Below are positions 1,236 through 53,423 of a stretch of DNA of 64,000 nt, piece by piece (within the stretch, counting starts at the first letter, position 1; the number at the start of each line of letters is the position of its first letter). A program made the translations under genes and the position numbers. The notes beneath the pieces were generated by a model. That model did not search any database and had not been told where the DNA came from. It saw only the letters and a list, made by a program, of their open reading frames with translations. The DNA is from an uncultured Pseudomonadota bacterium. GTDB lineage: Bacteria > Pseudomonadota > Gammaproteobacteria > Steroidobacterales > Steroidobacteraceae. The DNA is taken from the NCBI GenBank assembly GCA_903929455.1, contig CAIYVA010000110.1:14651-78650 (forward strand). The letters run 5' to 3'.

Positions 1236-2867
1236 TCAATTGGTAGCGCCCGTGAGCTGCAACGCACTGGCCATTTGCTCGCGTAGTTTAAATTTCATGA
1301 CCTTTCCGGATGGCGTCAACGGCAAGCGATCAACGAACACCACGTAACGGGGCACTTTCCAGCGCGACACGCGCTCCAAACACCAGCTGCGGATATCCTC
1401 AGGTGTGGGCACTGACCCCGGCACCAAGACAACCACTGCGCACACTTCCTCACCGTACTTGACGTCCGGCACGCCCACCACAGCGACCGTACTGACATCG
1501 GGATGTTGCAGCAGCAGACCTTCAATCTCGATCGGCGATAGATTTTCGCCACCGCGTATAATCATGTCTTTCGAGCGGCCCACAATCGTCACAAAACCCT
1601 GTGGATCCATCGTGGCCAAATCACCCGAATGGAGCCAGCCTTCCGCATCAATGGTCTGAGCAGTTTGCTCTGGGTCGCGATAGCCCATCATACGACCAGG
1701 ACCCTGATAGCACAGCTCCCCGCGCACCCCATGCGGCACGATGCCGCCCGCTTGATCAACCAGCTTAATGCTCACACCTGGGGCTGCCACCCCACAGGTC
1801 GTTGCTTTTTTCTCAACAGGATCATCCGCTGAGGTACTTGAGGTAACACCACAGGTCTCGGTTTGGCCATACCCATTAATCAGCTGTGCGCCAAAGCGCC
1901 GCTCCCATATGGGGATCAACTCGACCGGCACTTGGGCGCCACCAATGATCAGCAGCTGCAACGCGGACAGATCTCGCTGTGCAAAACTCGGATCATCCAG
2001 CATGGCGATCACCATAGTCGGTACACCGGCAAATACCCGACAGCGCTCTTGCTCCAGTAGCTCCAACGTCCGATCCGCTTTAAAAATTCGTACTGGCAGC
2101 GTGGTCGCACCGATCAAGGCAGCACCTGGCGTGAAGACACCCGAACCACCCACGTGAAACAGCGGAAATGCACTGCACACACGATCTCCCGACTCAATGC
2201 CATAGCGTCGATGGGCATTGAGCGCCGATGTGACGATGGCATTGGAGGACAGCTGGGCGGCTTTCGGATTGCCCGTCGTCCCTGAGGTGTACTGAATCAT
2301 GAATAAACGATCGGGATCGACTACCGGAAAATCACGCGTATCTGATGCCCCCGCCATCAGTGCACGGACTCCGTTAGAGAAGGAATAAATACCCAATAAA
2401 TTCGGCAATTGCGGCGCCACAGCCTCAATCACGGACCGCAGTTGCACACCACTGACCTCATCCGCATGAAAAATGCAGCGCACCTGCACGACGTCTAAGG
2501 CATATAACAGCTCAGCCTGCTTATAGAGCGGATTTAAAGTCACAATGACCAAGCCCGCCCGCGAGATCGCGTACTCAATGAGTATCCACTCCGGATAACT
2601 GGGGCCCCAAACCGCCACTCGATCACCCACTTGATACCCTAAGGACAGCAAGCCAGCAGCTAGCTTCGAGACCTGCTGATCAAGCTGCTGGTAGGTCAGT
2701 CGTACCGCGTCCAGCCCGGGCTCTGGCGCTGAGACCACCGCCTCCCGATCAGGCCACTGTTTCGCCGCACGCCGCAAGGCATCCGACAGCGTGAGACCAA
2801 GGCTCTGAGCCTCGGCTGACTCAGCCATCCACACCGACCGATCAGGATCAGGACGCAGCACACTCAT
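1236..2867 (-). CDS. AMP-dependent acyl-CoA synthetase/ligase (FadD-like)
   Basis: Motifs YTSGTTGNPKA, GYGQTE, SGDLA and PLTPSGKVMKFKL. The ORF extends to 3086, but homology-like sequence begins at Met74 (MSVLRPDP...), whose ATG is at 2867. Confidence 0.85.
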   Translation of the reverse strand: MSVLRPDPDRSVWMAESAEAQSLGLTLSDALRRAAKQWPDREAVVSAPEPGLDAVRLTYQQLDQQVSKLAAGLLSLGYQVGDRVAVWGPSYPEWILIEYAISRAGLVIVTLNPLYKQAELLYALDVVQVRCIFHADEVSGVQLRSVIEAVAPQLPNLLGIYSFSNGVRALMAGASDTRDFPVVDPDRLFMIQYTSGTTGNPKAAQLSSNAIVTSALNAHRRYGIESGDRVCSAFPLFHVGGSGVFTPGAALIGATTLPVRIFKADRTLELLEQERCRVFAGVPTMVIAMLDDPSFAQRDLSALQLLIIGGAQVPVELIPIWERRFGAQLINGYGQTETCGVTSSTSADDPVEKKATTCGVAAPGVSIKLVDQAGGIVPHGVRGELCYQGPGRMMGYRDPEQTAQTIDAEGWLHSGDLATMDPQGFVTIVGRSKDMIIRGGENLSPIEIEGLLLQHPDVSTVAVVGVPDVKYGEEVCAVVVLVPGSVPTPEDIRSWCLERVSRWKVPRYVVFVDRLPLTPSGKVMKFKLREQMASALQLTGATN

Positions 2868-3045
2868 GGGTTCACACCGCTTAAGCACATAGGCCACACT
2901 GTATCGTCGAGCGCACGCCGCGTCACCCCTAAGCGAGCGCTCAATGTGACATCCGACGTCTAAAGAACAAGACGGGCACAATTCCGTTATAGTGACTGCC
3001 TTGGGAAAATTAAGCCATCGATCCATCGCGCGGAGTGCACCTCTC

Positions 3046-3513
3046 ATGACGACCCCCAATAAACCATCTGGTGTGCAGGCATTCATTGCCGATCACTTGG
3101 CGCGTTATCTGGCCACCGACGGTGAGGACGGATATTGGCTCGACGCCAGTCTCTTCGGTGGCACCGGCAAGTTACCGAGCCTGCTACTAACCACCACCGG
3201 TCGAACATCTGGAAAACTCATCACCACACCGATGATCTTCAGAGCCTTTGGCGCAGACACCCACCCCGCTTATATGGTGGTGGCCTCCAAAGGCGGCGCT
3301 CCGGATGCGCCCAACTGGTATCTAAACCTGCAGGCCAATCCACAGGTGACCGTGCAAATCAAAGCCGACAAGTTCAAAGCCACGGCGCGCACTGCCAACA
3401 CAGAAGAACGGGCAGAGCACTGGCCTAAACAGGTTGAGTTCTTCCCAGGCTTTGCGCGCTATCAAAGCAAAATCGAGCGGGAGATTCCGCTCGTGATTTT
3501 AGAAAGGGTATAG
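3046..3513 (+). CDS. DUF385 / deazaflavin (F420H2)-dependent nitroreductase-family protein (Ddn-like split beta-barrel)
   Basis: C-terminal signature APNWYLNLQANPQVTVQI...ERAEHWPKQVEFFPGFARYQSK...REIPLVILE is typical of this family. The likely start is ATG 3046 (Met19 of the ORF). Confidence 0.7.
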   Translation: MTTPNKPSGVQAFIADHLARYLATDGEDGYWLDASLFGGTGKLPSLLLTTTGRTSGKLITTPMIFRAFGADTHPAYMVVASKGGAPDAPNWYLNLQANPQVTVQIKADKFKATARTANTEERAEHWPKQVEFFPGFARYQSKIEREIPLVILERV

Positions 3514-3562
3514 CAGAGAAACAGCACCGAACGCCTGCAACGGTTGGCTCTGGCGCGACCGC

Positions 3563-4351
3563 TTACGCGGTGAGGTATTTGACGATGGTGCTCGAAAGAC
3601 TGCCAATCATCTGCTCATCGGTGAGCTTTGGTGATGGATCTTCGAGATGCGCATCAATCACGCCGACACATAGGTAAGTCGACACATGAGTCGCTGTTTC
3701 AATATCAGCCACCTTAATTTCATCGCGGTGGTTGGAGAAAAACAAATACGTCGTTGAATACAGAAACATCTCAGGCTTCAACTGCTCCGAATCCTGACAT
3801 ACCTGCGTCGCCTCGCGAGGCAGTCTCCGAACGAGGAATACACTCTTTCTCCTCAGTTCCAATACCAAACGAATCAGCTCAACCATACATTCGGCCAGCG
3901 GCCTGTGCATTGCTGTCAGCATGAACTTTCGAACCGGTTCGCTGTTATTGACGACCAAGGTTTCCACGAGTGCTGCGACAATGGCTTCCTTTCGGGGGAA
4001 ATACTGATACACCGTGCCGATGCTCACACCTGCTACCTGTGCGATGTAATTAGTGGTCGCGTACTCATAGCCTCTAGTCAATATGATTGACTCAGCAGCC
4101 TGCAAAATACATTCGACCGTAAATCGAGCGCGCGGTTGCTTTGGAATCTTAGGCGACGAAGCAGACGCTTCTATTCCCTGATTTGATTTCCCTGCTTTTG
4201 CTTTGACACGGGATTTGGTGATTGCGACACCAGCATCATTCGGTGCTGCCATCGTATCGTATGAGTGAGCCAAATCGCCCGCACTCAGTGGGCCCGCGTT
4301 GGCAATACGCGGTGCTTTGACTTTACGCAATGAAGACACGCCAGCAGCCAT
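3563..4351 (-). CDS. TetR-family transcriptional regulator with a ~75-aa basic N-terminal extension
   Basis: HTH region YATTNYIAQVAGVSIGTVYQYFPRKEAIV. Paralogue of the adjacent TetR. The start is uncertain (Met1 at 4351 or Met34 at 4252). Confidence 0.85.
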   Translation of the reverse strand: MAAGVSSLRKVKAPRIANAGPLSAGDLAHSYDTMAAPNDAGVAITKSRVKAKAGKSNQGIEASASSPKIPKQPRARFTVECILQAAESIILTRGYEYATTNYIAQVAGVSIGTVYQYFPRKEAIVAALVETLVVNNSEPVRKFMLTAMHRPLAECMVELIRLVLELRRKSVFLVRRLPREATQVCQDSEQLKPEMFLYSTTYLFFSNHRDEIKVADIETATHVSTYLCVGVIDAHLEDPSPKLTDEQMIGSLSSTIVKYLTA

Positions 4352-4384
4352 AAAATTTCCTAATCAACCAGGCATCATAACGAT

Positions 4385-5005
4385 CTATTTGGTGAGGTAT
4401 TTGATAATCGCACTCGATAGATGTTCAATCATCTGCTCATCGGTGAGCTTAGGCGATGGATCTTCAAGATGTGCATTAATAACGCCCACGCATAAATATT
4501 CCGACACATACATTGCCATTTCGATATCGTCGATTTTGATTTCGTCGCGATGATGAGTAAAAAAAGCATGAATAGTGGAGTACAAAAAGGTTTCGGGCGT
4601 CAACTGCTCTGAGTCTTCACCTATCTTGGTGGCATCACGAGGCAGTCGCCGGAATAAAAAAGCGCTTTTTTTCCGATTATTTAGCACCAAACGAATCAGT
4701 TCCGGCATGCACTCAGCGAATGGCCTATGCATCGACGCCAGCAGATACTTGCGGACAGGCTCCGTGCTATTGACCACCAGATTTTCAAGCAAGGCAGCCA
4801 CAATCGCTTCTTTACGAGGGAAGTACTGATACACCGTGCCAATGCTCACGCCCGCTACCTGCGCGATGTAATTGGTGGTGGCGTATTCGTAGCCTTTCTT
4901 TGAAATGATTAATTCAGCAGCCTGCAGGATGCAGTCAACAGTCACACGCGCACGAGGCTGCGTGGGCGCCTTACGCTTCGAGGTGGTCTGTTCCAATGCC
5001 TTCAT
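4385..5005 (-). CDS. TetR-family transcriptional regulator
   Basis: 206 aa with an HTH identical to the neighbour's (YATTNYIAQVAGVSIGTVYQYFPRKEAIV). It lies 33 nt upstream of the paralogue on the same strand. Confidence 0.9.
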   Translation of the reverse strand: MKALEQTTSKRKAPTQPRARVTVDCILQAAELIISKKGYEYATTNYIAQVAGVSIGTVYQYFPRKEAIVAALLENLVVNSTEPVRKYLLASMHRPFAECMPELIRLVLNNRKKSAFLFRRLPRDATKIGEDSEQLTPETFLYSTIHAFFTHHRDEIKIDDIEMAMYVSEYLCVGVINAHLEDPSPKLTDEQMIEHLSSAIIKYLTK

Positions 5006-5354
5006 ATATATCCTGGCTCCGCCCTACCGATCGGGCCGACGGCCTATCGTCTTCAAGCACCATCGCCATTCGGCCATCGGGCAGGTTGTGAAAGCGCTGT
5101 TTCAAAAGGACCACGCCAGACAATACCCTAGCCCGCATGGACAACTTGAGCATGACAGATCAGCTACCATTTGTTAATAAGCCCGCGCTCCCCCACGACG
5201 TATTAAAACAACACGCGCACCTAGGGCACCGGCCTTACAAGGGCGTTTGGCGGTCTGGTAACACCGAGAAATCGCAAGTGAGACCGGACCTTAGACCGCT
5301 TAGGGCGCTGACGGCTCTGCTGGTGTTTTGAGCCGAGGGGTTGGATCTGACTCC

Positions 5355-15851: not shown

Positions 15852-17012
15852 ATGGATCTTATTTTTAGTGAAGAGCAGCAAATGCTGCGCGATATGACTC
15901 GTCGCCTGTGCGAGGACTTCGCTCCATTGACCGTACTCAGACAATTGGAAGGCACTGAGCCTGGTTACTCCGACGATTTTTGGAAAGCGCTGATCGACGC
16001 CGGCATGTCGGGTCTTACCATTGCCGATAAAGATGGCGGTTTAGGCTTAGGCGCGACTGAGATGATGATCGTACACGAGGAGTTTGGCAGAGCACTGGCA
16101 TTCTCACCCCATTTTGTGAGCTCAGTGCTCGCGGCTCACCTCATCAGCACAACCGGCAACACCGCTCAGCGCCAGCGGTGGCTCCCGTCTATTGCCAGTG
16201 GACAATCGATTGTCAGTATCGGCAGTCTGGAGCCACAGGGCGGGCATGAGCTATCAGATATCCAGTGCTCAGCGAAGCGCACCGCCACCGGCTATCGCCT
16301 ATCCGGCACGAAACACTTCGTGGCCTATGCCGCCCGCGCACACGCTGCTGTGATCTTGGCCCGCGTCGGCACAGCCACAGATGATGTGATCGCCCTACTG
16401 GTTGATTTAAAAAGCCCTGGTGTTTCGATCCAATATCAGCCTAATCACGCGCGCGAAGCGGTCTACCAAGTCACCTTGCGGGACGTTGATGTCTCTATTG
16501 AAGACGCGCTCAAAGATGGCCAGCCCATGGCGACTGAATGGCAAGATGCCATGTACAGCGGGTTAATCGCGTTGGCCGCCCAAGCGGTCGGCGGTGCTGA
16601 ACGCGCGCATGCGATGGCAGTGGAGTATGCCAAAGTGCGCGAAGCCTTCGGCAAACCGATTGGCTCATTCCAAGCAGTTGCCCACAGCCTAGCGGATGTG
16701 GCTGTCGACATCGAAGGCTGTCGCATGCTGGTTCGTCAGGCTGCCTGGGCTAAGGATAGAGGTTATGACTTTCACCGCGTCGCCGCCATTGCGAAGCTAC
16801 AAGCCTGCGAAATGTATCGCCGCACCGCGGGGGTGACCATCCAAGTTCATGGCGGCATTGGCTTCACCAATGACGCGGATCCCCAGTTATTTTTCCGCCG
16901 CGCCAAGCACTTGCAGCTACTGCATTGGGACTCGGACTACCTCGAGGAGCGTATCATCGAGATGGTACTGCAGGAGACGTCAGAGCTCAGCGCCCATGGG
17001 GCTAACGGATAA
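15852..17012 (+). CDS. acyl-CoA dehydrogenase-family protein, probably a non-catalytic partner subunit
   Basis: 386 aa with the ACAD fold (GKPIGSFQAVAH, IQVHGGIGFT). I find no acidic residue at either known catalytic-base position. Confidence 0.75.
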   Translation: MDLIFSEEQQMLRDMTRRLCEDFAPLTVLRQLEGTEPGYSDDFWKALIDAGMSGLTIADKDGGLGLGATEMMIVHEEFGRALAFSPHFVSSVLAAHLISTTGNTAQRQRWLPSIASGQSIVSIGSLEPQGGHELSDIQCSAKRTATGYRLSGTKHFVAYAARAHAAVILARVGTATDDVIALLVDLKSPGVSIQYQPNHAREAVYQVTLRDVDVSIEDALKDGQPMATEWQDAMYSGLIALAAQAVGGAERAHAMAVEYAKVREAFGKPIGSFQAVAHSLADVAVDIEGCRMLVRQAAWAKDRGYDFHRVAAIAKLQACEMYRRTAGVTIQVHGGIGFTNDADPQLFFRRAKHLQLLHWDSDYLEERIIEMVLQETSELSAHGANG

Positions 17013-17095
17013 CGCAGCGGGCGATAGAGGGATACCCATCCGTCCTAAAACCAGATACCGTTTACGCCTATGTCTGTCCCTCGACTGAGCTTTCT

Positions 17096-18259
17096 ATGCT
17101 GACTTCTCAAGAGCCTGAGCACCTGACCCTATTGCGCGACACGTTGCGCCGGTTCATTGACAAGGAAATGCCACGAGATTTGGTCAGACAATGGGACCGC
17201 GAGGATCATTTTCCAAGTGACGTGTACCAAGGACTGGTGGATCTAGGCTTAACGGGCCTCACGGTCGCAGAAGAGTACGGCGGCAGCGGACGTGACATCA
17301 CGGCGATGATCATGACCATTGAAGAGCTGTCGGCCCGCAGCATGGCGGTGTCCACCGGATACATACAGTCGGCGTGCTATGCCGGGCTTAACATTGCAGA
17401 CGTCGGCAGTGAAGAGCAGCGCAGAACCTTACTTCCACGCGTTGCCACCGAAGGCCTTAAATTTTCTTATGGCTTCAGCGAACCGGATGTCGGCGCGGAC
17501 ATTGCGAGCGTGCGAAGCACGGCCGTTCGTCGTGATGGGAAAATCGTCATTAACGGACAGAAACGTTGGTGTTCTGGTGCAAAGATCGCCCAGTACATCT
17601 ATGCCCTCGTGAGAAGCGGTCCGGTCGAAGACCGCTACAACAACCTATCTCTCATACTCGTCCCAACGGACGCGCCCGGTATTACCTACCAACCACAAGC
17701 CACCCTCGGTTTGCGTGGCGATGGCACCTACGACGTCAGCTTTGACCACGTAACCGTTAGAGAAGAGGACATCGTTGGCGGCCTAGATGGGTGGAACGCT
17801 GGATGGAAAAAACTGGTAGGCCCTGGCCTTAATGTTGAAAAAATCGAAGTTGCGGCGATGGCATTGGGCATCTCCCGCGCAGCGGTCGATGATGCGTGGA
17901 CTTATGCACAGGATCGCAAGCAATTCGGCAAGCCCATTGCCTCTATTCAGTCTATCCGACACATGCTCGCGGACGTCAAAACAAAATGGCAGGCCTGTCA
18001 CTTAATGACCTACCACGCTGCCTCCATCGTGGAGGCGAACCAACCAGCGGACGTTGCCACCGCGATGGCCAAGCTATTTGTGTGCGATACGGCGCGCGAC
18101 ATTGTCCTCACCTGCCAACAGATCATGGGCGCCTACGGCTACGCAGATGGCTTTGACATGGAACGCTATGTTAGAGACATCCTAGTCATGCCGATACTGG
18201 GCGGTTCTTCTGCCATACAAAAGAACAACATCGCCAATCGTCTGGGGCTTCCTCGATAG
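17096..18259 (+). CDS. acyl-CoA dehydrogenase
   Basis: 387 aa: FSEPDVGADIAS, GKPIASIQSIRH, MGAYGYADGFDMERYVRD, and C-terminal LGGSSAIQKNNIA. Confidence 0.85.
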   Translation: MLTSQEPEHLTLLRDTLRRFIDKEMPRDLVRQWDREDHFPSDVYQGLVDLGLTGLTVAEEYGGSGRDITAMIMTIEELSARSMAVSTGYIQSACYAGLNIADVGSEEQRRTLLPRVATEGLKFSYGFSEPDVGADIASVRSTAVRRDGKIVINGQKRWCSGAKIAQYIYALVRSGPVEDRYNNLSLILVPTDAPGITYQPQATLGLRGDGTYDVSFDHVTVREEDIVGGLDGWNAGWKKLVGPGLNVEKIEVAAMALGISRAAVDDAWTYAQDRKQFGKPIASIQSIRHMLADVKTKWQACHLMTYHAASIVEANQPADVATAMAKLFVCDTARDIVLTCQQIMGAYGYADGFDMERYVRDILVMPILGGSSAIQKNNIANRLGLPR

Positions 18260-18335
18260 ACCACAAGGCGAAGTCGATTGCTCAAGATCTGCAGACAGAC
18301 ACGTCAGCGTTGAGAGTGAAAAAAAGGAGAACACG

Positions 18336-19049
18336 ATGACACCACAGCCGTCACCCCCCCGTTGCCTCGTCATTACTGGCGCCAGCAAAGGCATTGGACT
18401 CGCGACAGCGACCCGCTTTGCTGCGGCAGGCTACCAAGTGATCAATCTCTCCCGAACGGACACCTCCGTGCCAGGCGCGGTGCAGATGACCGTCGATCTC
18501 AGTAACCCTTCATCCATTGAGTCCATATCAAAACCCCTGCTCGCAGCAGTTGAGGGGTTCCCTGTTATAACCCTCGTCCACAATGCTGCGCTTCAGACCA
18601 TGGGAAGCATCAAAGAGGCCGAAAGCGAACAGCTACGAGCTATGTTCGAGGTCAACGTGGTCGCTCCTGTGACACTCAATCAGATGCTCTTGCCCACCAT
18701 GCAGCCCGGTTCGTCCGTGATTTATATCGGCTCAACCATGAGCCATCGTGCCACGCGCAATCTAACCGGCTATATCGCCACGAAGCATGCCACCTTGGGT
18801 TTGATGCGCAGCACCTGCCAAGACCTAGCAGGTACCGGTGTGCATACGTGCTGCATTTGCCCAGGCTTTACTGAAACCGAGATGCTCCGAAGCTTCGGCG
18901 GTGATGTGCTAAAGCATCTCGCGTCGTTAACCACTCAGCAACGCATTGCATCAACGAGTGAGATCGCCAATTTAGTGCATTTCGCGGCGGAGAACCCGGT
19001 CGTCAATGGCGCAGCACTGAACGCCGATCTTGGATTTATTGAGCCCTAA
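18336..19049 (+). CDS. short-chain dehydrogenase/reductase
   Basis: TGASKGIG, NNAA and YIATKHA motifs. Confidence 0.85.
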   Translation: MTPQPSPPRCLVITGASKGIGLATATRFAAAGYQVINLSRTDTSVPGAVQMTVDLSNPSSIESISKPLLAAVEGFPVITLVHNAALQTMGSIKEAESEQLRAMFEVNVVAPVTLNQMLLPTMQPGSSVIYIGSTMSHRATRNLTGYIATKHATLGLMRSTCQDLAGTGVHTCCICPGFTETEMLRSFGGDVLKHLASLTTQQRIASTSEIANLVHFAAENPVVNGAALNADLGFIEP

Positions 19050-19096
19050 CCCATCAGCTAATCCGTCATACGGCTACGCTTAAAAGGAACGCCGAC

Positions 19097-19531
19097 ATGT
19101 CATCAGATGAACAAGCGATTATGCATGGCCTCGGTCATTTCGCACGATTGATAGACGGCAAGTTGTGGGACCGCATAGGTGAGGTGTTTGCAGCCGATGT
19201 GAGCTTCCACTACGGGATCGGTGCAGACCAGCACGGCATTGAGCGCTTACGTGCGCTGTTTCAGCATTTTTTGGACCGATGCGGTGGAACGCAACATCTG
19301 CTGGGTAGCGTCATTTTAGATTTGGATGGCGACCAAGCGATCAGTCGCGCCTATGTTCAAGCGCGCCATCAGCGTCGTGATGACCTAGGGGGGCCGGTTC
19401 TCGATACGAGCGGCGAATATATTGATCGTTGGGAGCGGCGCCCCGAAGGCTGGCGTATCATCCGCCGCGACGCGAAATGGTTTACGTTCTCAGGAGATTT
19501 AAGCATCCTACCAAGCGTCGTGGACGCCTGA
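19097..19531 (+). CDS. NTF2-fold / SnoaL-like protein
   Basis: 144 aa. The pattern (LIDGKLWDRIGEVFAADV...HLLGS...YIDRWERRPEGWRI) resembles SnoaL_4-type NTF2 proteins. Last gene of the ACAD operon. Confidence 0.6.
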   Translation: MSSDEQAIMHGLGHFARLIDGKLWDRIGEVFAADVSFHYGIGADQHGIERLRALFQHFLDRCGGTQHLLGSVILDLDGDQAISRAYVQARHQRRDDLGGPVLDTSGEYIDRWERRPEGWRIIRRDAKWFTFSGDLSILPSVVDA

Positions 19532-19801
19532 TTAACTGCCGACCGTACTCGGCGGGCTCCTACGCAGAGGGTAGATTGGCGGAGCGGCACCGTTCCAACG
19601 GCCAGTGCTGATGGAAGCACGCAATACTGACGTTTGGCACCACACGCCATGGCCGAACACGTGTCGCCACTAGCGCCTCTTGGGAGCGGCTCTTTTTAAC
19701 AATATGATTTAGCTCATATTATTCTCCATTCAATTCAAGCAACCCTGCTTAGTCCATAGCAGCCCATTCCGCAGCGCCCTCACACACAGCGCTTTTTTTC
19801 T

Positions 19802-19830
19802 TGTGAATATCTATTCACAATCTATTCACA
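19802..19830 (+). promoter_or_regulatory. operator-like repeat set immediately upstream of the wHTH gene
   Basis: Inverted repeat TGTGAATA (19802-19809) / TATTCACA (19812-19819). The 10-mer TCTATTCACA occurs twice (19810-19819 and 19821-19830). The set ends 10 nt before ATG 19841. Confidence 0.55.
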
Positions 19831-19840
19831 CTAAGTCACA

Positions 19841-20347
19841 ATGTGGTCCATGTATCCGACGCTAACCGACACCGTGACCCGCCTCTTGATCTCGGAACCA
19901 AGCGGCCTCTCGTCACCAGAACTCAGACAGCGCCTGCGCCATCGAATCAGCCAGCCTACGCTTTGGCGTGTATTGAACACCCTGCGCAGTGAAGGTCGCA
20001 TCGTCGTCACTGGACGCGCTCGTGCCACACGTTACCGTAGCGCCAATCCAACAGATCTCGCCACGCAACGAAGCTTGCATATGCACCGCGCCGTCGCACG
20101 GCGTCTTGCGCAAATGCCTACATTGCGGAAGGTGGCAATAGAGCGACTTGAGCAGCTACGCCGCATTAATCCACATGGACGGGCTTATCACGACCGGTGG
20201 GCGCGTGCGCTTGAAGGCTCTCTGCCGTCATTACTCAGACTCTTGACCGAAGAATCCGAATCAGCGTCTTCCTTACGTAAAGAGTCACCATTCACCACGC
20301 TCGTCACGCCGGCGGATAGACGGCGCGCATTCTATCTAGTTCGCTGA
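19841..20347 (+). CDS. winged-helix DNA-binding protein (putative antitoxin/regulator)
   Basis: 168 aa. The N-terminal GLSSPELRQRLRHRISQPTLWRVLNTLRSEGRIVVTGRARATRY looks like a wHTH. There is no Shine-Dalgarno upstream. Confidence 0.6.
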   Translation: MWSMYPTLTDTVTRLLISEPSGLSSPELRQRLRHRISQPTLWRVLNTLRSEGRIVVTGRARATRYRSANPTDLATQRSLHMHRAVARRLAQMPTLRKVAIERLEQLRRINPHGRAYHDRWARALEGSLPSLLRLLTEESESASSLRKESPFTTLVTPADRRRAFYLVR

Positions 20348-20357
20348 ATTACTCACT

Positions 20358-20891
20358 GTGCGTCGTGATCAACTCCAACACGTAATCTTTGAGATTGGCA
20401 CTCGGTTCGCGCTAACAGAATTCTATGTTATAGGCTCTGCCGCGATCCTCGCAGCGCTGCCAGAGCCACCACCCGGCGCACTAACAGCTACGAGAGACGT
20501 GGATATCATTCCACTGACAGATGATCAAAAAATCGCCGACCAAATTTCTTTTGTGATCGGCGAAGCAAGTGACTTTGACTTAGCCCATGGCTACTACGCT
20601 CAGGGTGTCTCGGAGGCAACACCGACCTTTGCGCCTCGTAACTGGAAGTCCCGAGCCATCCCAATTCGGGTAGCGCAATTTACAGCCTGGTGCATGGAAC
20701 CAACCGACCTCGTACTCAGCAAACTAGGCGCCGCGCGTGAAAAAGACATCGAGTTCGCACACAGCGCTTCAAATCTACATCTTGTTACACCAGAAGGACT
20801 ACTAGAGCGTCTTTCGCTCATTGACTGCACTCCGACGCAACGCACGCGCATCACCGAACGCGTGCATGCACTTAACGTACCAAGAGAGTGA
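20358..20891 (+). CDS. minimal Pol-beta-superfamily nucleotidyltransferase-like protein (putative toxin/effector)
   Basis: 177 aa with a GTG start 10 nt after the wHTH stop. GS...DVD arrangement (VIGSAAILAAL...TRDVDIIPL) followed by a helical C-terminal part. Confidence 0.55.
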   Translation: MRRDQLQHVIFEIGTRFALTEFYVIGSAAILAALPEPPPGALTATRDVDIIPLTDDQKIADQISFVIGEASDFDLAHGYYAQGVSEATPTFAPRNWKSRAIPIRVAQFTAWCMEPTDLVLSKLGAAREKDIEFAHSASNLHLVTPEGLLERLSLIDCTPTQRTRITERVHALNVPRE

Positions 20892-20973
20892 AGCGCTAAG
20901 ATTAGGGTAGTAGCCTAGGAATTTGACCCCTCAGCGTTTACCAGAAAACCTCAATCCCCAACCCCTAAAAGCA

Positions 20974-20999
20974 CTTGGGGCGGCCAAAGCCGCCCCAAG
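20974..20999. terminator. strong bidirectional Rho-independent terminator
   Basis: Perfect 11-bp GC-rich stem CTTGGGGCGGC / GCCGCCCCAAG with a CAAA loop, followed by GTTTCTC on the plus strand and TGCTTTTA on the minus strand. It sits between convergent genes. Confidence 0.8.
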
Positions 21000-21022
21000 G
21001 TTTCTCGAAACACCGACCAGCC

Positions 21023-22156
21023 TCAGCCCACTGCAGTTCGCTTCTTTTTCTCTGGGTCATCAAATGGCAGCGTATGCGCTATCGCTGGCCCCTTGACCGT
21101 CTTACCGCGGACTTCGAGTTTGGTGCCATGCACCGCCAATGGCGTCTCGATACGCATAATGGCCATCGATTTCTTCGTTAAGCTCGAATACATGCCGAAG
21201 GTAATGACACCGACCTTCTTGCCGGCCGAGTAGACCTCGTCACCTAAATCAGCCGCCACGTGACCATCGACTAACAAGCCAAAGATCTTGAAGCGCTCTT
21301 TGCCTTTTAAGCGCCAGTGCTGATCAGCACCGCGAAAGTCCGTCTTGCCCGGGCTCACTGTAAAATCGAGACCCAACTCCCACAGGGTGTCGCCGGGTGG
21401 GTCCTTATCAAAGGGATACATCTGCGACATGTCATAGGGGTAGAACAGCAAGGAGCTTTCCACTCGCAGCATATCGAGGGTTGAGAAGCAGGCAGGCACT
21501 ATACCCATCGACTTCCCTTCGCTCAGGATGCTATCCCAAACAATACCCGCCTCCGCACCCTTCACAAAGATCTCATAGCCCCGCTCACCGGTATAACCGG
21601 TGCGCGAAATGGTCACGGCCGCACCAAACAAGGTCGCTGGCATGTGGTGGAAATATTTCAGATCGCGGACACCAGGCACATGCTTTGCAAGGAAATCAAC
21701 CGCCACAGGGCCCTGTAAAGACAGATCATGCAGATCATCATCGAATAACAGCGCGGCATTACGACCTGTCACTAATGGTGCCAGTGTCTCATGCCCAGCA
21801 CCGCTACCATGAACCACCATCCACGCATTGGGACCGGTACGGTACAAAACGCAGTCCTCGATGAAATGACCGGCGTCATTCAACATCGTGGCATAGGCAG
21901 ATTTTCCTGGATAAATCTTATCGACATTGCGGCTAGTGGCGTACTGCAAAATAGCGGACGCGTGTGGTCCCACCAAGTGCAGCTTCTTCAGGCCAGACAC
22001 ATCCATGAGCGCTGCTTTAGTTCTAATCGCGACGTGGTGGTCGACCATATTGCTGTCATAGGTCCAAGCTGTCCCCATGCCGTTCCAGTCCTCGAGCTTT
22101 GAGCCCAAGGCCCGGTGTCGATCCCCTAAAACGGTTGTACGCCAACTAAGTGCCAT
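21023..22156 (-). CDS. dmmD: GcvT-family tetrahydrofolate-binding aminomethyltransferase-like protein (dimethylamine monooxygenase DmmD-type)
   Basis: 377 aa with the GcvT fold (LGSKLEDWNGM..., GYTGERGYEIF). Last gene of a DUF3445/reductase cluster. Confidence 0.7.
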   Translation of the reverse strand: MALSWRTTVLGDRHRALGSKLEDWNGMGTAWTYDSNMVDHHVAIRTKAALMDVSGLKKLHLVGPHASAILQYATSRNVDKIYPGKSAYATMLNDAGHFIEDCVLYRTGPNAWMVVHGSGAGHETLAPLVTGRNAALLFDDDLHDLSLQGPVAVDFLAKHVPGVRDLKYFHHMPATLFGAAVTISRTGYTGERGYEIFVKGAEAGIVWDSILSEGKSMGIVPACFSTLDMLRVESSLLFYPYDMSQMYPFDKDPPGDTLWELGLDFTVSPGKTDFRGADQHWRLKGKERFKIFGLLVDGHVAADLGDEVYSAGKKVGVITFGMYSSLTKKSMAIMRIETPLAVHGTKLEVRGKTVKGPAIAHTLPFDDPEKKKRTAVG

Positions 22157-22225
22157 CTTCCTACTCCTTCAATGAAAGCGCCCATCTGCGCTTATGTAAG
22201 TGTGAACAGTAAAACCAATCCGAAT

Positions 22226-23269
22226 TTATTCCGGTGCGTTGCCTGACGTTGTCGGTGAACCATCATCCAGTGGGGCAAGCCAGTTCACGACATGATCTCG
22301 GTACCGTGTCAGCCCCTTATAATCGACCAGCGCAGGATGCAGGTCGCGTAGCGTGCGATGCGTACGCCGCGCCCATTTTGGAATGGTTGCTAGCTCGCGG
22401 ATGCTGATTAAATAGCAACGGATACCAAAAAGCATCGCATTGCTACGGGGCAGCCGCCAAAGACCCTGCAACTCGACGCGGATATGCGCCTTATCCGCTA
22501 CGTTATCTGCCGTAACGGAAGCGCGATCAGAGCCCCACCTTGGGTAGAACTCTGGCGAGGTATCAAGCCTAGGATTCACGGTCATCGTCCAGTTCAAGCG
22601 TCTGACTGGCTCATTGATTCGCAAATTAAGTAAAAACTTTAAGGCGCGATCGAACACGTTCAATTCATGCGCTAAAGGCACAGGGCCGTGCCATTCCTTA
22701 AAGCTCATGCCCATATCAAAGTCCATAGACCAGTCCGCAGGCGTTGTGACCATGCCCGCTTCAATATAAAAATCGCCATCGCGCTGGTCCATCACCACAA
22801 AGTCACCCTGCGCCTGGCGCGTAATGTAATCGAGCGGCTCACGTGGCAAGGTACTGGGATCACCGAACGTAAACTCATTCTTTATATTAAGTAACTTGTT
22901 ATGCCAACTCCAACGATTACCCTGCTTGCTGAGCGAAAACTGCTCAGGGTAATCCTTCGACATATGATTCATCAGCAGTTCAAGCACATCCCACTGCGCA
23001 CTCATCATATGCGGCAACGCTTGATAGCGTAGAGGATCTTCTTTTAGAACAATCTCTCGATCACGACATTCGCCAATGTAATGTTCATCGACATCAAACT
23101 GAAACTCTGTGATCGAGTCTTTCGGTCCCGGCACATGAGGCTCAATGTTGACCGAGTACATGTACTTGTCTTCAACAAACGGCAGCGGGAACCGACGAAT
23201 GGCTCTAGGACTATTGGAATATTTAAAATCGTCGCGGAAAGTCTCATCCGTTTTGAACACAGCACTCAT
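22226..23269 (-). CDS. dmmC: DUF3445 heme-dependent oxidative N-demethylase alpha-subunit family (DmmC-type)
   Basis: 347 aa. Family-typical segments: QGDFVVMDQ..., WHGPVPL, RRLNWTM, RVELQGLWRLPRSNAMLFGIRCYL. Confidence 0.7.
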   Translation of the reverse strand: MSAVFKTDETFRDDFKYSNSPRAIRRFPLPFVEDKYMYSVNIEPHVPGPKDSITEFQFDVDEHYIGECRDREIVLKEDPLRYQALPHMMSAQWDVLELLMNHMSKDYPEQFSLSKQGNRWSWHNKLLNIKNEFTFGDPSTLPREPLDYITRQAQGDFVVMDQRDGDFYIEAGMVTTPADWSMDFDMGMSFKEWHGPVPLAHELNVFDRALKFLLNLRINEPVRRLNWTMTVNPRLDTSPEFYPRWGSDRASVTADNVADKAHIRVELQGLWRLPRSNAMLFGIRCYLISIRELATIPKWARRTHRTLRDLHPALVDYKGLTRYRDHVVNWLAPLDDGSPTTSGNAPE

Positions 23270-23287
23270 GATGATCTCCTGTTCCGA

Positions 23288-24250
23288 CTACAGATCCAGT
23301 ACCAAATTCTTACCATGCGCCCGTGAGACACACGGCATGATCAGGGTGCCAGAGGCTTTCTCTTCTGGCGACAAATAGTGGTCGTTATGGACTAACACGC
23401 CGTCGACCTCGAGTACGCGGCACTTGCATTCACCGCACACCCCACCGCGGCACAGATAAGGCGCATCCACACCGGCGTCTTCAATGGCCTCAAGCAAGCT
23501 CTGATCCGGCAGAACGCTGACTTTGACATTGGATTTCTTGAGAAACACATCGAAGGGGTCACCTACCGGAGGCGCACTAAACTGCTCCCAGTGGATATGA
23601 CTCTCTGCCCAGCCGGCCGCACGCGCGCTGGCGAGCACCCGACCGATCATGGGAGTCGGCCCACAGACATAGACGTGCGTCCCCAAGGGCTGCGCAGCGA
23701 CTAAGCCCTCAATATCGATCCGATGCTCGGCACTGTCGTGATAAATCCTCACACGATCTCCGTGGCGAGCCAGCAGACGATCAGCAAAGGCAGCATGGTC
23801 TGGCGCTCGCACGGAGTAGTGCAGCTCATAAGGTACCGCACCCATTTTAAGATCTTCTAGCTGTGCTGCAATCGCAGTGATGCCGACGCCGCCCGCGAAT
23901 AACACGTGCTTGAGTGCGAGTTTATCGAGCTGAAATAGATTCACTGGATGCGCGATCTGCAGGGTCATCCCTACGGTTACGTGATCGTGCATAAACACCG
24001 ATCCACCGCGCGACTGATCTGCACGCCGCACCGCAATCTCATAGGCACTCAGATCATTTGGTGAGCTGAGCAGTGAGTACGGATTTCGATAGACCCGGGT
24101 GGCACCTTTCATCACAACCACAACATGCGAGCCACCGGAAAAAGACGGCATCTGAGCACCATCAGCGGCTTTCAATACAAAATGCTTGATCAGCGGGGTC
24201 ACCTGCGTGATCGCCGTGACTGTCACAGCAAAGGTGTGACTGTGGCTCAT
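23288..24250 (-). CDS. dmmB: phthalate-dioxygenase-reductase-type flavin/NAD(P)H/[2Fe-2S] oxidoreductase (DmmB-type)
   Basis: RNPYSL flavin motif, GGVGITA NAD motif, and a C-terminal plant-type ferredoxin CRGGVCGECKC. Confidence 0.75.
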   Translation of the reverse strand: MSHSHTFAVTVTAITQVTPLIKHFVLKAADGAQMPSFSGGSHVVVVMKGATRVYRNPYSLLSSPNDLSAYEIAVRRADQSRGGSVFMHDHVTVGMTLQIAHPVNLFQLDKLALKHVLFAGGVGITAIAAQLEDLKMGAVPYELHYSVRAPDHAAFADRLLARHGDRVRIYHDSAEHRIDIEGLVAAQPLGTHVYVCGPTPMIGRVLASARAAGWAESHIHWEQFSAPPVGDPFDVFLKKSNVKVSVLPDQSLLEAIEDAGVDAPYLCRGGVCGECKCRVLEVDGVLVHNDHYLSPEEKASGTLIMPCVSRAHGKNLVLDL

Positions 24251-51941: not shown

Positions 51942-52556
51942 ATGTCCCGACCTAGAGCGATACGCGGTAACGACTTACGACGCGCACTCGCACAGGAGAG
52001 TGCACGGATCATGGCCGAACATGGTATTGAAGATTACGCGCTTGCTAAAAAGAAAGCGGCAGTCCGTCTCGGCGTAAGTGAACTGGGAGCACTGCCCACT
52101 AATGCAGAAATTGACGTAGCGCTCGCGCAGTATCAAAGGCTATTTGCGCCCAGTGATCGCCAGGACACTTTGTCCGCACAGCGACGCTGCGCGGTCGAGG
52201 CCATGCGGCTACTGGAAACCTTCAAACCGAGACTGGTGGGGCCTGTCCTGAGCGGCACCGCGATCACTCACCAGACGATCACGCTACATGTATTTGCTGA
52301 CACAGTAGAATCCATCAGCATTGCATTGCTAGATAGAAAAATTCCCTATCGACTGGCTGAGCAACGCGTCAAAGTGAGCGCTGACCGACAACAGCATTGC
52401 CCTGTGTTTTGTCTTCAGTACTTAGAATTTGAAATTGAGGCTGTTGTTTTCCCAGAACATGGTATCCGTCAGGCGCCATTGTCTGCAATCGATGGACGTC
52501 CGATGCGGCGCGGCACACTCACAGAAGTGCAGATGCTGCTAGCCGTGCAGGCTTAG
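51942..52556 (+). CDS. hypothetical protein
   Basis: 204-aa ORF with protein-like composition and an RBS-like AGGAGG 9 nt upstream. I do not recognise a family. Confidence 0.5.
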   Translation: MSRPRAIRGNDLRRALAQESARIMAEHGIEDYALAKKKAAVRLGVSELGALPTNAEIDVALAQYQRLFAPSDRQDTLSAQRRCAVEAMRLLETFKPRLVGPVLSGTAITHQTITLHVFADTVESISIALLDRKIPYRLAEQRVKVSADRQQHCPVFCLQYLEFEIEAVVFPEHGIRQAPLSAIDGRPMRRGTLTEVQMLLAVQA

Positions 52557-53423
52557 CTCCCCAGTGGTCGGTCGATGCTCATCCCAGATGAGATAGAGCC
52601 CCCCCGCAATCACTATGGTGGCGCCAAATAGCACGTGCGCCGACGGCGTGATGGCAAATACAAAATAGTCCAATAGCAAACCCCACACTAAGGCGGTGTA
52701 CTCAAATGGAGTGACCGTAGCGGCTGCCGCCAATTGAAAGGCGCGCGTCAAAAAATACTGCGCCAGAGCCCCGGTAAGGCCAATCATCGCCAGAATCCAT
52801 AGATGAGCTGGCGCCAACGAGTGCCACGTGGGGGCTGCGATCGCTGAGGCAACAACAGCCACACCAAAAAGATTCCAAGTGACCAGCGCGTAGCTCGAAT
52901 CCGTTCGACCCAATACCCGGATCGATAACACACTGACGGCATAGCAGATCGCCGATGCGGCTGCGGCGAGGCCGCCCAATGAGAGCATTCCGTGGCCATG
53001 GGGTTGTAAGGCAATCAGCACGCCAAGCATACCCACGGCGATCGCAACCCACCGGCGTATCGGCACAGGCTCTTTTAAGAAGATACGGGAAAAGGCGGCC
53101 ACCATCAGCGGCGCGCTCATGTAGATTGCATACGTATCGGTCAGTCCTTGAACAGATACGGAATAGATAAAGGTCACTAGCATCACAATGGCAAGCACGA
53201 TACGCACAAGATACAGCGCGTAATTGTTCACACGAAGAGAACGCCAGTGATTTCCCCAGGCTAGCGTCAGCGCGATGAAAGGCAAAGAAAAGATAGCCCG
53301 CAAGGCGGTCACTTGCATCGGAGGATAGTAGGCAGAGACGCGCTTTAAACCAGCATCCATAAATGAGAACAGCAGAACGCCCAGCAACATTCGGCCGATC
53401 GCTTTGAGGTTGGCCGTCTGCAA
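52539..53423 (-). CDS. EamA/DMT-family transporter
   Basis: 294 aa, about ten hydrophobic segments in two repeated halves. Confidence 0.8.
   Translation of the reverse strand: MQTANLKAIGRMLLGVLLFSFMDAGLKRVSAYYPPMQVTALRAIFSLPFIALTLAWGNHWRSLRVNNYALYLVRIVLAIVMLVTFIYSVSVQGLTDTYAIYMSAPLMVAAFSRIFLKEPVPIRRWVAIAVGMLGVLIALQPHGHGMLSLGGLAAAASAICYAVSVLSIRVLGRTDSSYALVTWNLFGVAVVASAIAAPTWHSLAPAHLWILAMIGLTGALAQYFLTRAFQLAAAATVTPFEYTALVWGLLLDYFVFAITPSAHVLFGATIVIAGGLYLIWDEHRPTTGELSLHG

Follow-up and report, generated by a model that had tools for sequence, protein, structure and literature searches.

The window, i.e. the 64,000-nucleotide stretch of DNA analysed here, harbours a compact operon coding for a winged helix-turn-helix (wHTH) protein with an all-helical C-terminal domain (CTD), followed by a small DUF6036 nucleotidyltransferase (NTase). 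Based on the conservation of the pair and by analogy with the AbiE and MenAT systems, we propose with moderate confidence that it functions as an autoregulated toxin-antitoxin (TA)-like module, in which the NTase would be the toxin and the wHTH-CTD protein would serve as both antitoxin and repressor. The features of the locus, in window coordinates, are as follows.

19576..20934, no strand: whole cassette, comprising the promoter/operator region and both genes; 1,359-bp presence/absence segment defined by blastn
19801..19830, + strand: operator-like site, with an inverted repeat and a tandem direct repeat
19802..19810, + strand: putative extended -10 element, TG-n-GAATAT, inferred; overlaps the first operator repeat
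19850..20347, + strand: gene 1, proposed antitoxin/repressor, ORF of 165 residues (168 residues from the alternative ATG at 19841)
19862..20041, + strand: wHTH domain of gene 1, residues ~5-64, delineated with Foldseek; carries the invariant SQPTLWR recognition-helix motif
20045..20344, + strand: all-helical CTD of gene 1, residues 66-165, conserved in all loci
20358..20891, + strand: gene 2, DUF6036 nucleotidyltransferase (Pfam PF19502), proposed toxin, 177 residues, GTG start
20974..20999, no strand: GC-rich hairpin, bidirectional terminator, outside the cassette; dG -26.6 kcal/mol, z -5.2

A mobile two-gene cassette

Using blastn, we identified two closely related metagenome contigs, L093 and L106, that have kept both flanks and lack exactly positions 19576-20934. 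In both, the window segments 18307-19575 and 20935-23300 align adjacently at 92-95% identity; their counterparts in L093 are positions 1463-2730 and 2733-5077. The cassette is a horizontally mobile, self-contained two-gene operon, and the empty site is clean in close relatives. An earlier note on this DNA had described the gene pair as unrelated to the flanking blocks, a statement that the 1,359-bp presence/absence segment makes sharper. The GC content of the cassette equals that of its flanks. No clean target-site duplication was found at the borders, where a 7-bp AGGGTAG repeat is imperfectly placed. Searches of the region against plasmids with megablast yielded no match.

The two ORFs, whose numerous homologues and conservation as a pair go well past what chance could produce, are arranged as previously described, 10 nt apart, with no GGAG-like Shine-Dalgarno motif preceding the GTG start of gene 2. 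The translational coupling suggested from this arrangement is in line with the junctions of homologous loci, in which the two genes overlap by 4 or 20 nt or are separated by a gap of 3 to 24 nt. For gene 1, the ORF of 168 residues reported earlier (19841-20347) does exist, but the second ATG, at position 19850, is the more likely start, because the homologues are 165 to 167 residues long and because one of the two public annotations also starts the gene there.

The spacer upstream of gene 1 had been described as AT-rich, with terminator-like hairpins. It is AT-rich only mildly, with a GC content of 0.50-0.51 vs ~0.55, and contains only weak hairpins (z -0.5 and -2.2). Downstream of gene 2, the terminator that had been noticed at 20974-20999 is indeed a strong hairpin, with an 11-bp stem containing 9 GC pairs, but it is shared by the cassette side and the convergent GCV_T gene. 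Because it is present in the empty-site contigs, it belongs to the conserved backbone and not to the cassette. The sole match in an Rfam scan of the region was a sub-threshold one to PtaRNA1 on this hairpin.

Gene 2 codes for a compact DUF6036 nucleotidyltransferase

Gene 2 matches PF19502 (DUF6036) with 41.7 bits, for a cut-off of 23.6 (E 1.4e-10), and the 36 relatives aligned with it all exceed the gathering threshold as well. Pfam describes this family as a 'nucleotidyltransferase of unknown function', neither a function nor a partner has been described for it, plasmid-borne copies are named 'DUF6036 family nucleotidyltransferase' by NCBI, and no paper in the literature that we searched mentions DUF6036 or PF19502. 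We collected 333 database homologues of gene 2. Clustering at 50% identity divides the NTases of the DUF6036 family into about 2,100 groups, from many phyla, and most members are 172 to 190 residues long.

The AlphaFold2 model of gene 2 (pLDDT 96.2) shows a strand at residues 21-25, the G26-S27 pair, a helix at residues 27-32 and a strand at residues 47-52 that bears D47-V-D49. The order is that of Pol-beta NTases, which have an alpha-beta-alpha-beta core with an hG[GS] motif at the junction of strand 1 and helix 2 and, further on, a [DE]h[DE]h motif in strand 2, so that the GS...DVD arrangement recognized by eye in the earlier note has the expected structural context. Among 78 relatives, H8, G26, S27, [ST]45, D61, E69, D117, K129 and D130 are invariant, and [DE]47, D49, K122 and R127 are conserved at 96-99% (E or D at position 47 in 96%, D49 in 97%), in keeping with an intact active site. 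Position 45, two residues before [DE]47, is occupied by Ser in 58 relatives and by Thr in the other 20; in the model, the T45 residue of gene 2 is located on the loop entering strand 2. The classic third catalytic acid is absent from the predicted third strand, residues 80-83, which reads Y-A-Q-G; candidates for this role, such as the invariant D61 and E69, are found elsewhere.

Foldseek searches of the gene 2 model against the PDB gave no match (best E 0.9, TM ~0.2). In BFVD, only weak matches to poly(A)-polymerase or Pol-beta NTases were detected, the best of them to an unnamed protein (E 0.015, TM 0.53-0.63). What identifies gene 2 as an NTase is therefore its Pfam label, its motifs and the order of its secondary structure elements.

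Searches of the PDB with the sequences of both proteins and with the profiles of both families returned chance matches only. No informative match was obtained for either protein in PADLOC, NCBIfam or PHROGS, other than a weak NCBIfam match of gene 1 to the N-terminal HTH of YjjJ. Neither protein matched a TA-named Pfam or NCBIfam family or a PADLOC defence model.

The gene 1 product combines a winged helix with a helical domain of its own

Gene 1 has 360 homologues in the databases, none of them with a Pfam domain. In its AlphaFold2 model (pLDDT 89.8), residues ~5-64 superpose on the wHTH domains of Fur, ArsR and PadR proteins with an rmsd of ~2 A and a Foldseek probability of 1.0, which substantiates the N-terminal winged helix that had been proposed from the sequence.

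The helical CTD is characterized by the motifs [RQK]SLxxH and LR-x-x-[ST]-P-F and by an invariant Trp; unlike the rest of gene 1, it is kept across all loci. The wider CTD family includes 1,831 proteins, and partners with this domain are annotated as 'hypothetical protein' or 'helix-turn-helix transcriptional regulator', with no Pfam family; we found no match to any Pfam family among 63 members. No PDB match to the CTD fold was detected, since Foldseek of the gene 1 model matched the wHTH domain only. In a search of the PDB with the CTD profile, the best match was a designed helical bundle (E 0.014), and no HEPN protein was among the matches.

The two proteins form an obligate, co-diverging pair

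We analysed 80 genomic loci with a DUF6036 relative (34-66% identity), from Gammaproteobacteria, Betaproteobacteria, Acidobacteriota, Myxococcota, Chloroflexota, Actinomycetes and Binatia. The partner was detected directly upstream in 65 of them by tblastn. A profile HMM recognized the CTD in 74 of 78 upstream ORFs; the other four are ORF-picking errors, with tblastn matches nevertheless. Altogether, the CTD is encoded directly upstream of the DUF6036 gene in 80/80 loci, with the NTase as the downstream gene in every one, and the pair is obligate. The CTD is also encoded upstream in three plasmid copies and, conversely, a PF19502 gene follows the CTD homologue in the six cases that we checked (6/6). 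The earlier note would have counted a lack of co-occurrence of the homologues against its proposal; they clearly do co-occur, in both directions.

The N-terminal parts of the 74 partners recognized by the HMM are diverse. They consist of a wHTH (17 proteins), an HTH_17 (8) or an Xre domain (3) or of a short basic arm (26), and they are absent in ~12 cases. The N-terminal DNA-binding module is swappable and the CTD is constant, a modularity that is antitoxin-like. Furthermore, the pairwise identities of the NTases correlate with those of the CTDs (r = 0.84-0.86), and none of 999 Mantel permutations reached the observed value: NTase and CTD co-diverge.

The CTD is fused to the NTase in two database proteins. 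Such fusions are atypical of a classical TA pair, and they might be frameshift artefacts.

An operator-like site overlaps the promoter region

A perfect 9-bp inverted repeat, TTGTGAATA/TATTCACAA, is present at 19801-19820, and a tandem direct repeat with 11-bp spacing, ATCTATTCA-NN-ATCTATTCA, at 19809-19828. Of the 22 loci of the wHTH clade, 21 have the direct repeat at an equivalent place upstream of the partner gene; it occurs in none of the 58 loci whose partners have other DNA-binding domains. No off-target matches to it were found in 555 kb, and the chance expectation of the repeat in the window is 0.00. An operator-like match at position 53149 was discarded as fortuitous: it is inside a transporter ORF, and tblastn revealed no second copy of the module in the window.

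The homologous loci contain TATAAT, TATTAT or TAATAT in the same register relative to the first ATCTATTCA repeat as the putative extended -10 element, with TTGCA-like -35 boxes ~17 nt upstream. A consensus scan selected a different promoter, TTCACA-17-CACAAT, at 19814-19842. The mRNA might be leaderless, beginning at the ATG at 19850. Judging from its position and conservation, the tandem repeat over the promoter region is likely the operator of the wHTH clade.

Variable genetic environments and plasmid carriage

Analyses of the genetic environments revealed no third conserved gene: the largest cluster among 263 flanking ORFs has eight members. The 124 nearest neighbours match 84 Pfam families, each at most twice, and the immediate neighbours are mostly housekeeping or metabolic genes, as opposed to defence islands, for which we found no enrichment among the neighbours. 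Some copies adjoin genes for an IS3 transposase or for Phd/RelE. The DUF6036 family is carried by 54 plasmids, 28 of them conjugative, and no phage or viral carriage was detected in IMG/VR or in GenBank phage records. The pair has one of the operational attributes of a TA system, in that its two genes are kept together as an operon whose genomic surroundings vary or are mobile. The compact, autonomous module with TA architecture that the earlier note envisaged is borne out by the two-way co-occurrence, the swappable DNA-binding domain, the operator-like site and the empty site.

Comparison with AbiE/MenAT and type II systems

The AbiEii and MenT toxins (DUF1814, PF08843, COG2253) are NTases encoded downstream of diverse antitoxins, which belong to COG5340 or to other families. 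They add nucleotides to tRNA 3' ends, and their antitoxins inactivate them by inducing the auto-phosphorylation of a Ser or Thr residue next to the catalytic Asp, namely S78 (with D80) in MenT3, T39 in MenT1 and T65 in AbiEii (PMC7450476, PMC11375011, bioRxiv 10.64898/2026.01.19.700257). They have four motifs, I and II of the Pol-beta type, III, and a family-specific, C-terminal motif IV (PMC7450476). The assignment of AbiE to type IV, presented as established in the earlier note, is challenged by a 2026 preprint that reclassifies AbiE as type VII, with auto-phosphorylation induced by the antitoxin (bioRxiv 10.64898/2026.01.19.700257).

The pair described here resembles these systems in several respects. 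The gene for the DNA-binding partner is upstream and that for the NTase downstream, overlapping or coupled, and a single enzyme family is associated with different types of partners. As in AbiEi, the N-terminal wHTH of gene 1 (residues 5-64) is followed by a C-terminal domain (residues 66-165) that we propose to be neutralizing. Gene 2 shares with AbiEii and MenT the hG[GS] and [DE]h[DE]h motifs of Pol-beta enzymes, and its [ST]45-x-[DE]47-h-D49 segment has a Ser or Thr two positions ahead of the first catalytic acid; the R-x-S-E-D-L-D-F segment of the AbiEii proteins that we aligned has the same [ST]-x-acid-h-D pattern. By eye only, D117...S-K122-x-x-A-x-R127-x-K129-D130 of gene 2 is similar to D-K-x-x-A-x3-R-x3-K-x-R-D-x-x-D of AbiEii, and this K...A..R..KD cluster sits in the C-terminal helical lobe.

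Nevertheless, there are clear differences. As the earlier note had pointed out, the NTase is shorter than its AbiE counterpart, with 177 residues vs 285-347 for the AbiEii proteins aligned here; AbiEii/MenT enzymes are typically bi-lobed, with about 290 residues. The CTD of the partner is all-helical, with no match to the AbiEi models, and the operator-like site is a tandem direct repeat. The AbiEii models of Pfam (E<=10) and PADLOC did not match gene 2, and the AbiEi models (Pfam AbiEi_1/3/4 and PADLOC AbiEi) did not match gene 1; AbiEi_4 was found in two distant HTH_17-type partners, at sub-threshold level only (E 0.0012 and 0.07). Foldseek of the gene 2 model detected no match to MenT, AbiEii or JHP933 structures. 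From plasmid annotations, we built an alignment of eight AbiEii members, and comparing its profile with a 72-sequence DUF6036 profile in hhalign gave a probability of 0.2%; the comparison with one AbiEii sequence was also negative. The motif resemblance to AbiEii therefore remains a by-eye observation. The relationship with AbiEi/AbiEii or MNT/HepT put forward in the earlier note did not withstand these Pfam, PADLOC, NCBIfam, hhalign and Foldseek searches. Since no match was found at the family level, the likeness to AbiE and to MNT/HepT is one of logic and short motifs and not of membership and, as judged from their sequences, the two proteins fall outside the AbiEii, AbiEi, MNT and HepT families.

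Type II antitoxins (Xre, RHH/MazE-like, MerR-type and wHTH proteins) likewise combine a neutralizing domain with interchangeable DNA-binding modules, and here too the operator-like site overlaps the operon's own promoter region. In contrast with type II systems, however, the CTD is a folded helical domain of ~100 residues and not a short disordered tail, and the cognate enzyme is an NTase and not an RNase, a kinase or a gyrase poison.

Proposed mode of action and alternative explanations

In the model that we favour, the winged helix of gene 1 would bind the tandem ATCTATTCA repeats over the operon's own promoter and repress transcription, and its helical CTD would bind the gene 2 product and neutralize it. 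The latter would be a compact, catalytically competent NTase of the Pol-beta type. By analogy with AbiEii and MenT, we infer that it is the toxic partner and that, when free, it would modify an essential RNA by nucleotide addition, for instance at tRNA 3' ends, and thereby arrest growth. Neutralization might be achieved by simple binding; alternatively, the partner may induce the auto-phosphorylation of the invariant Ser/Thr residue (T45), as in AbiE and MenAT. Such a module could contribute to addiction or stabilization of mobile DNA, and possibly to phage defence.

The last role could be its main one, and a dedicated abortive-infection system such as the earlier note suggested, with the NTase set free upon phage infection, would be a particular case of the favoured model. 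AbiE provides a precedent, and some copies are located beside genes for ThsB-TIR, an SLFN-like helicase with HNH, SoFic, MADS or AbiE. We nevertheless consider this specialization unlikely, as such defence neighbours are sporadic, with about one match each among the 124 neighbours, and as PADLOC recognized no system.

Small Pol-beta NTases of 160 to 250 residues include aminoglycoside and lincosamide nucleotidyltransferases. The pair could be devoid of toxicity, with the NTase serving housekeeping or resistance by modifying a cellular macromolecule or a small molecule such as an antibiotic, in the manner of ANT or Lnu enzymes, and gene 1 coding for its own transcription factor or for a subunit that confers specificity. 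Regulators of the wHTH, Xre and MerR types often lie next to their target genes, metabolic genes predominate among the chromosomal neighbours, and the two apparent CTD-NTase fusions would fit a two-subunit enzyme. However, co-occurrence and co-divergence with the NTase concern the CTD, the part that does not bind DNA, and about a dozen partners lack any DNA-binding domain. Gene 2 matched no resistance-enzyme model of NCBIfam or Pfam, no metabolic neighbour is conserved, and a selfish module would better account for the presence/absence polymorphism and for the carriage on plasmids. We give this explanation a small chance.

Lastly, the polarity of the module might be reversed, as in the type VII HepT/MntA systems, the CTD protein being a toxin, for example a HEPN-like RNase acting through its RSLxxH motif, and the NTase an antitoxin inactivating it by covalent nucleotidylylation. 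Both modules consist of two genes coding for a small Pol-beta-type NTase and a small all-helical protein with an R-x4-H-like motif (R74-S-L-H-M-H79 in gene 1, with an invariant His), and in both one partner might be modified covalently. NTases of the MNT type are known to act as antitoxins by AMPylating HepT (PMC7641770), and the conserved R-x-x-[ST]-P-F motif of the CTD could represent a modification site. Nevertheless, at least one member, L047, has Ala in place of the Ser/Thr residue preceding the Pro, and the Arg of the RSLxxH motif is replaced by Val, Gln or Lys in several loci, whereas HEPN RNases require the Arg. This motif is also in the first helix of the CTD, which is not its usual position in HEPN proteins. 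None of 63 CTDs matched HEPN or HepT families of Pfam, even at E<=10, and this result, together with the variable Arg, led us to reject the HEPN reading. In turn, gene 2 matched no MNT/NTP_transf_2 model of Pfam and has an additional C-terminal helical lobe. The NTase gene comes first in HepT/MntA systems, whereas here the upstream gene codes for the helical protein, whose swappable DNA-binding domains are an antitoxin signature. We thus regard a reversed polarity as distinctly improbable.

Significance

Few components of TA and defence systems are as abundant as NTase toxins (AbiEii/MenT) and NTase antitoxins (MntA), and their control by covalent modification of themselves or of their partners has been worked out only recently. 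A third, much smaller NTase lineage, strictly linked to an uncatalogued partner domain, would broaden this class. We suggest, tentatively and with slightly less than even confidence, that the DUF6036 NTases and their CTD partners constitute an undescribed, widespread TA family, in which a minimal NTase toxin is associated with a new folded antitoxin domain mounted on at least four DNA-binding modules. Its control, perhaps by auto-phosphorylation of Ser/Thr45, would extend the 'type VII' logic of AbiE and MenAT to a lineage of NTases for which we found no relationship to theirs. The wHTH clade is predicted to offer a ready-made operator-repressor pair, and the presence/absence polymorphism of the cassette represents a natural isogenic comparison. 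If our proposal holds true, about 1,800 proteins currently known as 'hypothetical' or 'HTH regulator', as well as a Pfam DUF, would gain a function, and this compact system of 177 and 165 residues would make it possible to ask whether induced auto-phosphorylation generally controls NTases.

Conservation of the gene pair

The two small ORFs described in the earlier note are both present, 10 nt apart:

Gene 1: 19841-20347, same strand as gene 2, 168 aa, ATG start
Gene 2: 20358-20891, same strand as gene 1, 177 aa, GTG start

As that note had stated, nothing resembling a Shine-Dalgarno sequence was found before the GTG. The database form of gene 2 also has 177 aa (99% identical), and that of gene 1 has 165 aa, is 100% identical and begins at the second ATG (19850). 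Since gene 1 homologues are 165-167 aa long, 19850 is the likelier start.

A scan for DUF6036 nucleotidyltransferases (NTases), the gene 2 family, with one genome per species collected 370 relatives of the window type, and 80 loci were fetched. They span Steroidobacteraceae and other Gammaproteobacteria, Burkholderiales, Woeseiaceae, Acidobacteriota, Binatia, Myxococcota, Chloroflexota and Actinomycetes. Homology to gene 1 was detected directly upstream of the DUF6036 gene at 65/80 loci by tblastn. A gene 1 profile HMM was positive in 74 of 78 upstream ORFs, the other four being ORF-picking errors at tblastn-positive sites. The genes overlap by 4 or 20 nt or are separated by 3-24 nt. A profile of the helical C-terminal domain (CTD) of gene 1 retrieved 1,831 proteins that all lack Pfam domains, and the six looked up all precede a PF19502 gene with a 20-nt overlap. 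Pairwise identities of the NTases and CTDs correlate strongly (r = 0.84 overall, 0.86 within the distant clade), which none of 999 Mantel permutations reached. Thus, co-occurrence, whose absence would have spoken against the module, holds both ways, and by these comparisons the two genes form an obligate unit.

In two database proteins from the DUF6036 family search, P0340 (316 aa) and P0284 (210 aa), the CTD and the NTase are fused in a single reading frame. Genuine fusion is one possible explanation, a frameshift artefact where the two genes overlap another.

Gene 2 nucleotidyltransferase

Gene 2 scores 41.7 bits against Pfam PF19502 ('DUF6036, nucleotidyltransferase of unknown function'; gathering threshold 23.6), and 36/36 aligned relatives also pass the threshold. 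By sequence, it is a member of this catalogued, uncharacterised family, which has 2,121 representatives (50% clustering, E<=1e-3) and no mention in the literature library searched. The very confident AlphaFold2 model (pLDDT 96.2) has the alpha-beta-alpha-beta order expected for a Pol-beta-type NTase. G26-S27 follows strand 1, D47-V-D49 lies on strand 2, and residues 115-171 form a helical lobe. Across 78 relatives (34-66% identity), H8, G26, S27, D61, G68-E69, S71, F73, W96, R99, D117, K129, D130 and most of the signature G78-Y-Y-A-Q-G-V84 are invariant, with D49, K122 and R127 kept in 97-99%. Position 45 is Ser or Thr in all 78, and 96% have Glu or Asp at position 47. The model and sequence profiles matched no solved structure, and NTase-like matches in BFVD were weak, so that the Pfam label, the motifs and the topology, rather than a fold match, are the basis of the NTase assignment.

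Gene 1 partner protein

Gene 1 matched no Pfam family. Its AlphaFold2 model (pLDDT 89.8) comprises a winged helix (residues 5-64), as anticipated for the N-terminal segment, and a seven-helix CTD (66-165). The winged helix superposes on Fur/ArsR/PadR domains (probability 1.0, ~2 A), and the CTD matched no Pfam family or PDB entry.

N-terminal modules in 74 partner proteins
Winged helix, the window's clade: 17
HTH_17 (MerR/excisionase type), E 1e-12: 8
Xre HTH_3, E 2e-13: 3
Short basic arm, weak MazE-like similarity: 26
No N-terminal module: about 12

The CTD is the only part common to all partners in this sample. Toxin-antitoxin (TA) antitoxins are built in this way, with a constant partner domain and interchangeable DNA-binding modules.

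Putative operator and terminator

Two repeats precede gene 1 in the window at a distance of 20-40 nt:

Perfect inverted repeat: TTGTGAATA/TATTCACAA
Tandem direct repeat, 19809-19828: ATCTATTCA-NN-ATCTATTCA

The direct repeat occupies the same position in 21 of 22 loci of the winged-helix (wHTH) clade, the 22nd being truncated, and is found in 0/58 loci with other N-termini. It has no off-target matches in 555 kb, and 0.00 copies are expected by chance in the window. At homologous loci, the first repeat overlaps a TATAAT-like hexamer, and ~17 nt upstream there is a TTGCA-like box. We infer that the repeats are the operator of the wHTH domain, positioned to occlude the promoter.

A copy with two mismatches (ATCTATTCCGTATCTGTTCA, 53149-53168, minus strand) falls within an EamA/DMT-type transporter ORF (52539-53423). 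As neither gene has a second copy in the window, it looks like a chance match, though the shuffle expectation is 0. The clade (loci L001-L022) is gammaproteobacterial apart from L016, a Terriglobales MAG assigned to Acidobacteriota, which has a wHTH-clade pair and the same operator repeat; horizontal transfer or a binning error could explain this placement.

The upstream DNA, about 300 nt that the earlier note called AT-rich with terminator-like hairpins, is only mildly AT-rich (309-nt spacer, GC 0.50-0.51 against ~0.55); the hairpins exist but are weak (z -0.5 and -2.2). The strong terminator at 20974-20999 was borne out (dG -26.6 kcal/mol, z -5.2) and is bidirectional, common to the pair and the convergent GCV_T gene. 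A PtaRNA1 (antitoxin sRNA) match on this hairpin (20969-21019, minus strand; Rfam score 22.6 bits, below the gathering score of 47, E 0.12) is most likely chance, on a GC-rich stem.

Mobility and genomic context

The cassette lies between two metabolic blocks:

Within 15852-19531: three acyl-CoA dehydrogenase genes, SDR and SnoaL, left of the cassette
19576-20934: cassette
Within 21023-24250: convergent GCV_T, HODM-like and DmmA-like (methylamine demethylase-type) genes, right of the cassette

Assembly GCA_947447195.1 (contig CANFIK010000004.1) has the same arrangement. Two metagenome contigs (L093, L106) carry the SDR, SnoaL, GCV_T and HODM genes at 92-95% nucleotide identity and lack exactly 19576-20934, with ~2 nt instead; the empty site reads AGAGTAGAGT|CGTTT. 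This gives a cassette of 1,359 bp, comprising the promoter/operator region, both genes and a 43-nt trailer. The pair, unrelated to either flank as the earlier note had stated, belongs to a separate presence/absence segment. The strong terminator hairpin is kept in the empty sites, outside the cassette. Cassette GC equals flank GC, and no clean target-site duplication is visible at the borders. A 7-bp direct repeat, AGGGTAG, occurs at the left border (19568-19574) and 24 nt inside the right one (20904-20910), and is not a clean duplication.

Elsewhere, the flanking genes are not conserved: the largest cluster among 263 flanking ORFs has eight members, and the 124 nearest neighbours match 84 Pfam families, each at most twice. 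PADLOC matches among neighbours are sporadic. Individual neighbours include two ThsB-type TIR genes (L090, 87-1871), an SLFN-like helicase with an HNH protein (L086, 1-1963) and an IS3-family transposase (L089, 3682-4751). At two unrelated loci, DUF2283 genes lie just upstream of the pair (L084, 1578-1796; L090, 2061-2450); proteins of this family are frequently the smaller member of other putative TA pairs.

In PLSDB, 54 plasmids carry DUF6036 genes (32 from Rhodococcus, 28 conjugative), with a CTD ORF upstream in 3/3 plasmids inspected; no member of the family was found in phage records or IMG/VR contigs. On the Acidiphilium multivorum plasmid NZ_CP041717 (2690-3014 and 4215-5072), the partner is annotated as a 51-aa hypothetical protein, and a full CTD ORF of ~108 aa lies upstream of the DUF6036 gene. 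An annotated AbiEii/AbiGii toxin gene follows ~700 nt downstream. The comparative evidence is strong that the pair is real, autonomous, self-regulated and mobile, which we regard as very probable.

Proposed function

The AbiEii/MenT toxins are NTases whose genes follow those of diverse antitoxins. These enzymes extend the 3' ends of tRNA, and the antitoxin silences them by inducing auto-phosphorylation of a Ser/Thr beside the catalytic Asp (MenT3 S78/D80, MenT1 T39, AbiEii T65) (PMC7450476, PMC11375011, bioRxiv 10.64898/2026.01.19.700257). The invariant Ser/Thr of DUF6036 is placed equivalently, in the loop entering strand 2 and two residues ahead of the first acid. An AbiEii alignment made for this analysis shows the same pattern (R-x-S-E-D-L-D), and its DK..A...R...K.RD..D resembles SK..A.R.KD of DUF6036. 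Because hhalign of the DUF6036 profile against AbiEii gave a probability of 0.2%, these likenesses are resemblance, with homology not demonstrated. The likeness to AbiE/MenAT concerns module layout and possibly chemistry. The relationship to AbiEi/AbiEii suggested in the earlier note, which also named MNT/HepT, was not supported, and the pair does not qualify as a member of any of the four families.

A TA-type module is the best-supported reading, and a TA function is well motivated and marginally favoured. Gene 1 would encode a repressor and antitoxin and gene 2 an NTase toxin; toxicity, protein interaction, DNA binding and enzyme target are what we infer. This polarity is preferred because gene 1 is upstream and its DNA-binding domains are swappable, the NTase catalytic motifs are intact, and AbiEii/MenT provide a precedent. 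The RSLxxH motif of the CTD suggests the reverse, a HepT/MntA-like polarity; however, its Arg varies, the CTD matches no HEPN model, and the helical protein holds the antitoxin-like position and the DNA-binding domains. A non-toxic regulator-enzyme pair is possible, but poorly explains both the conservation of a non-DNA-binding CTD as partner and the cassette's behaviour as a mobile indel. Dedicated phage defence, a possible sub-case of the TA-type module, has no specific support. We rate the pair, with a partner CTD that matches nothing in Pfam or the PDB, as a putative NTase-based TA module outside AbiEii, AbiEi, MNT and HepT.
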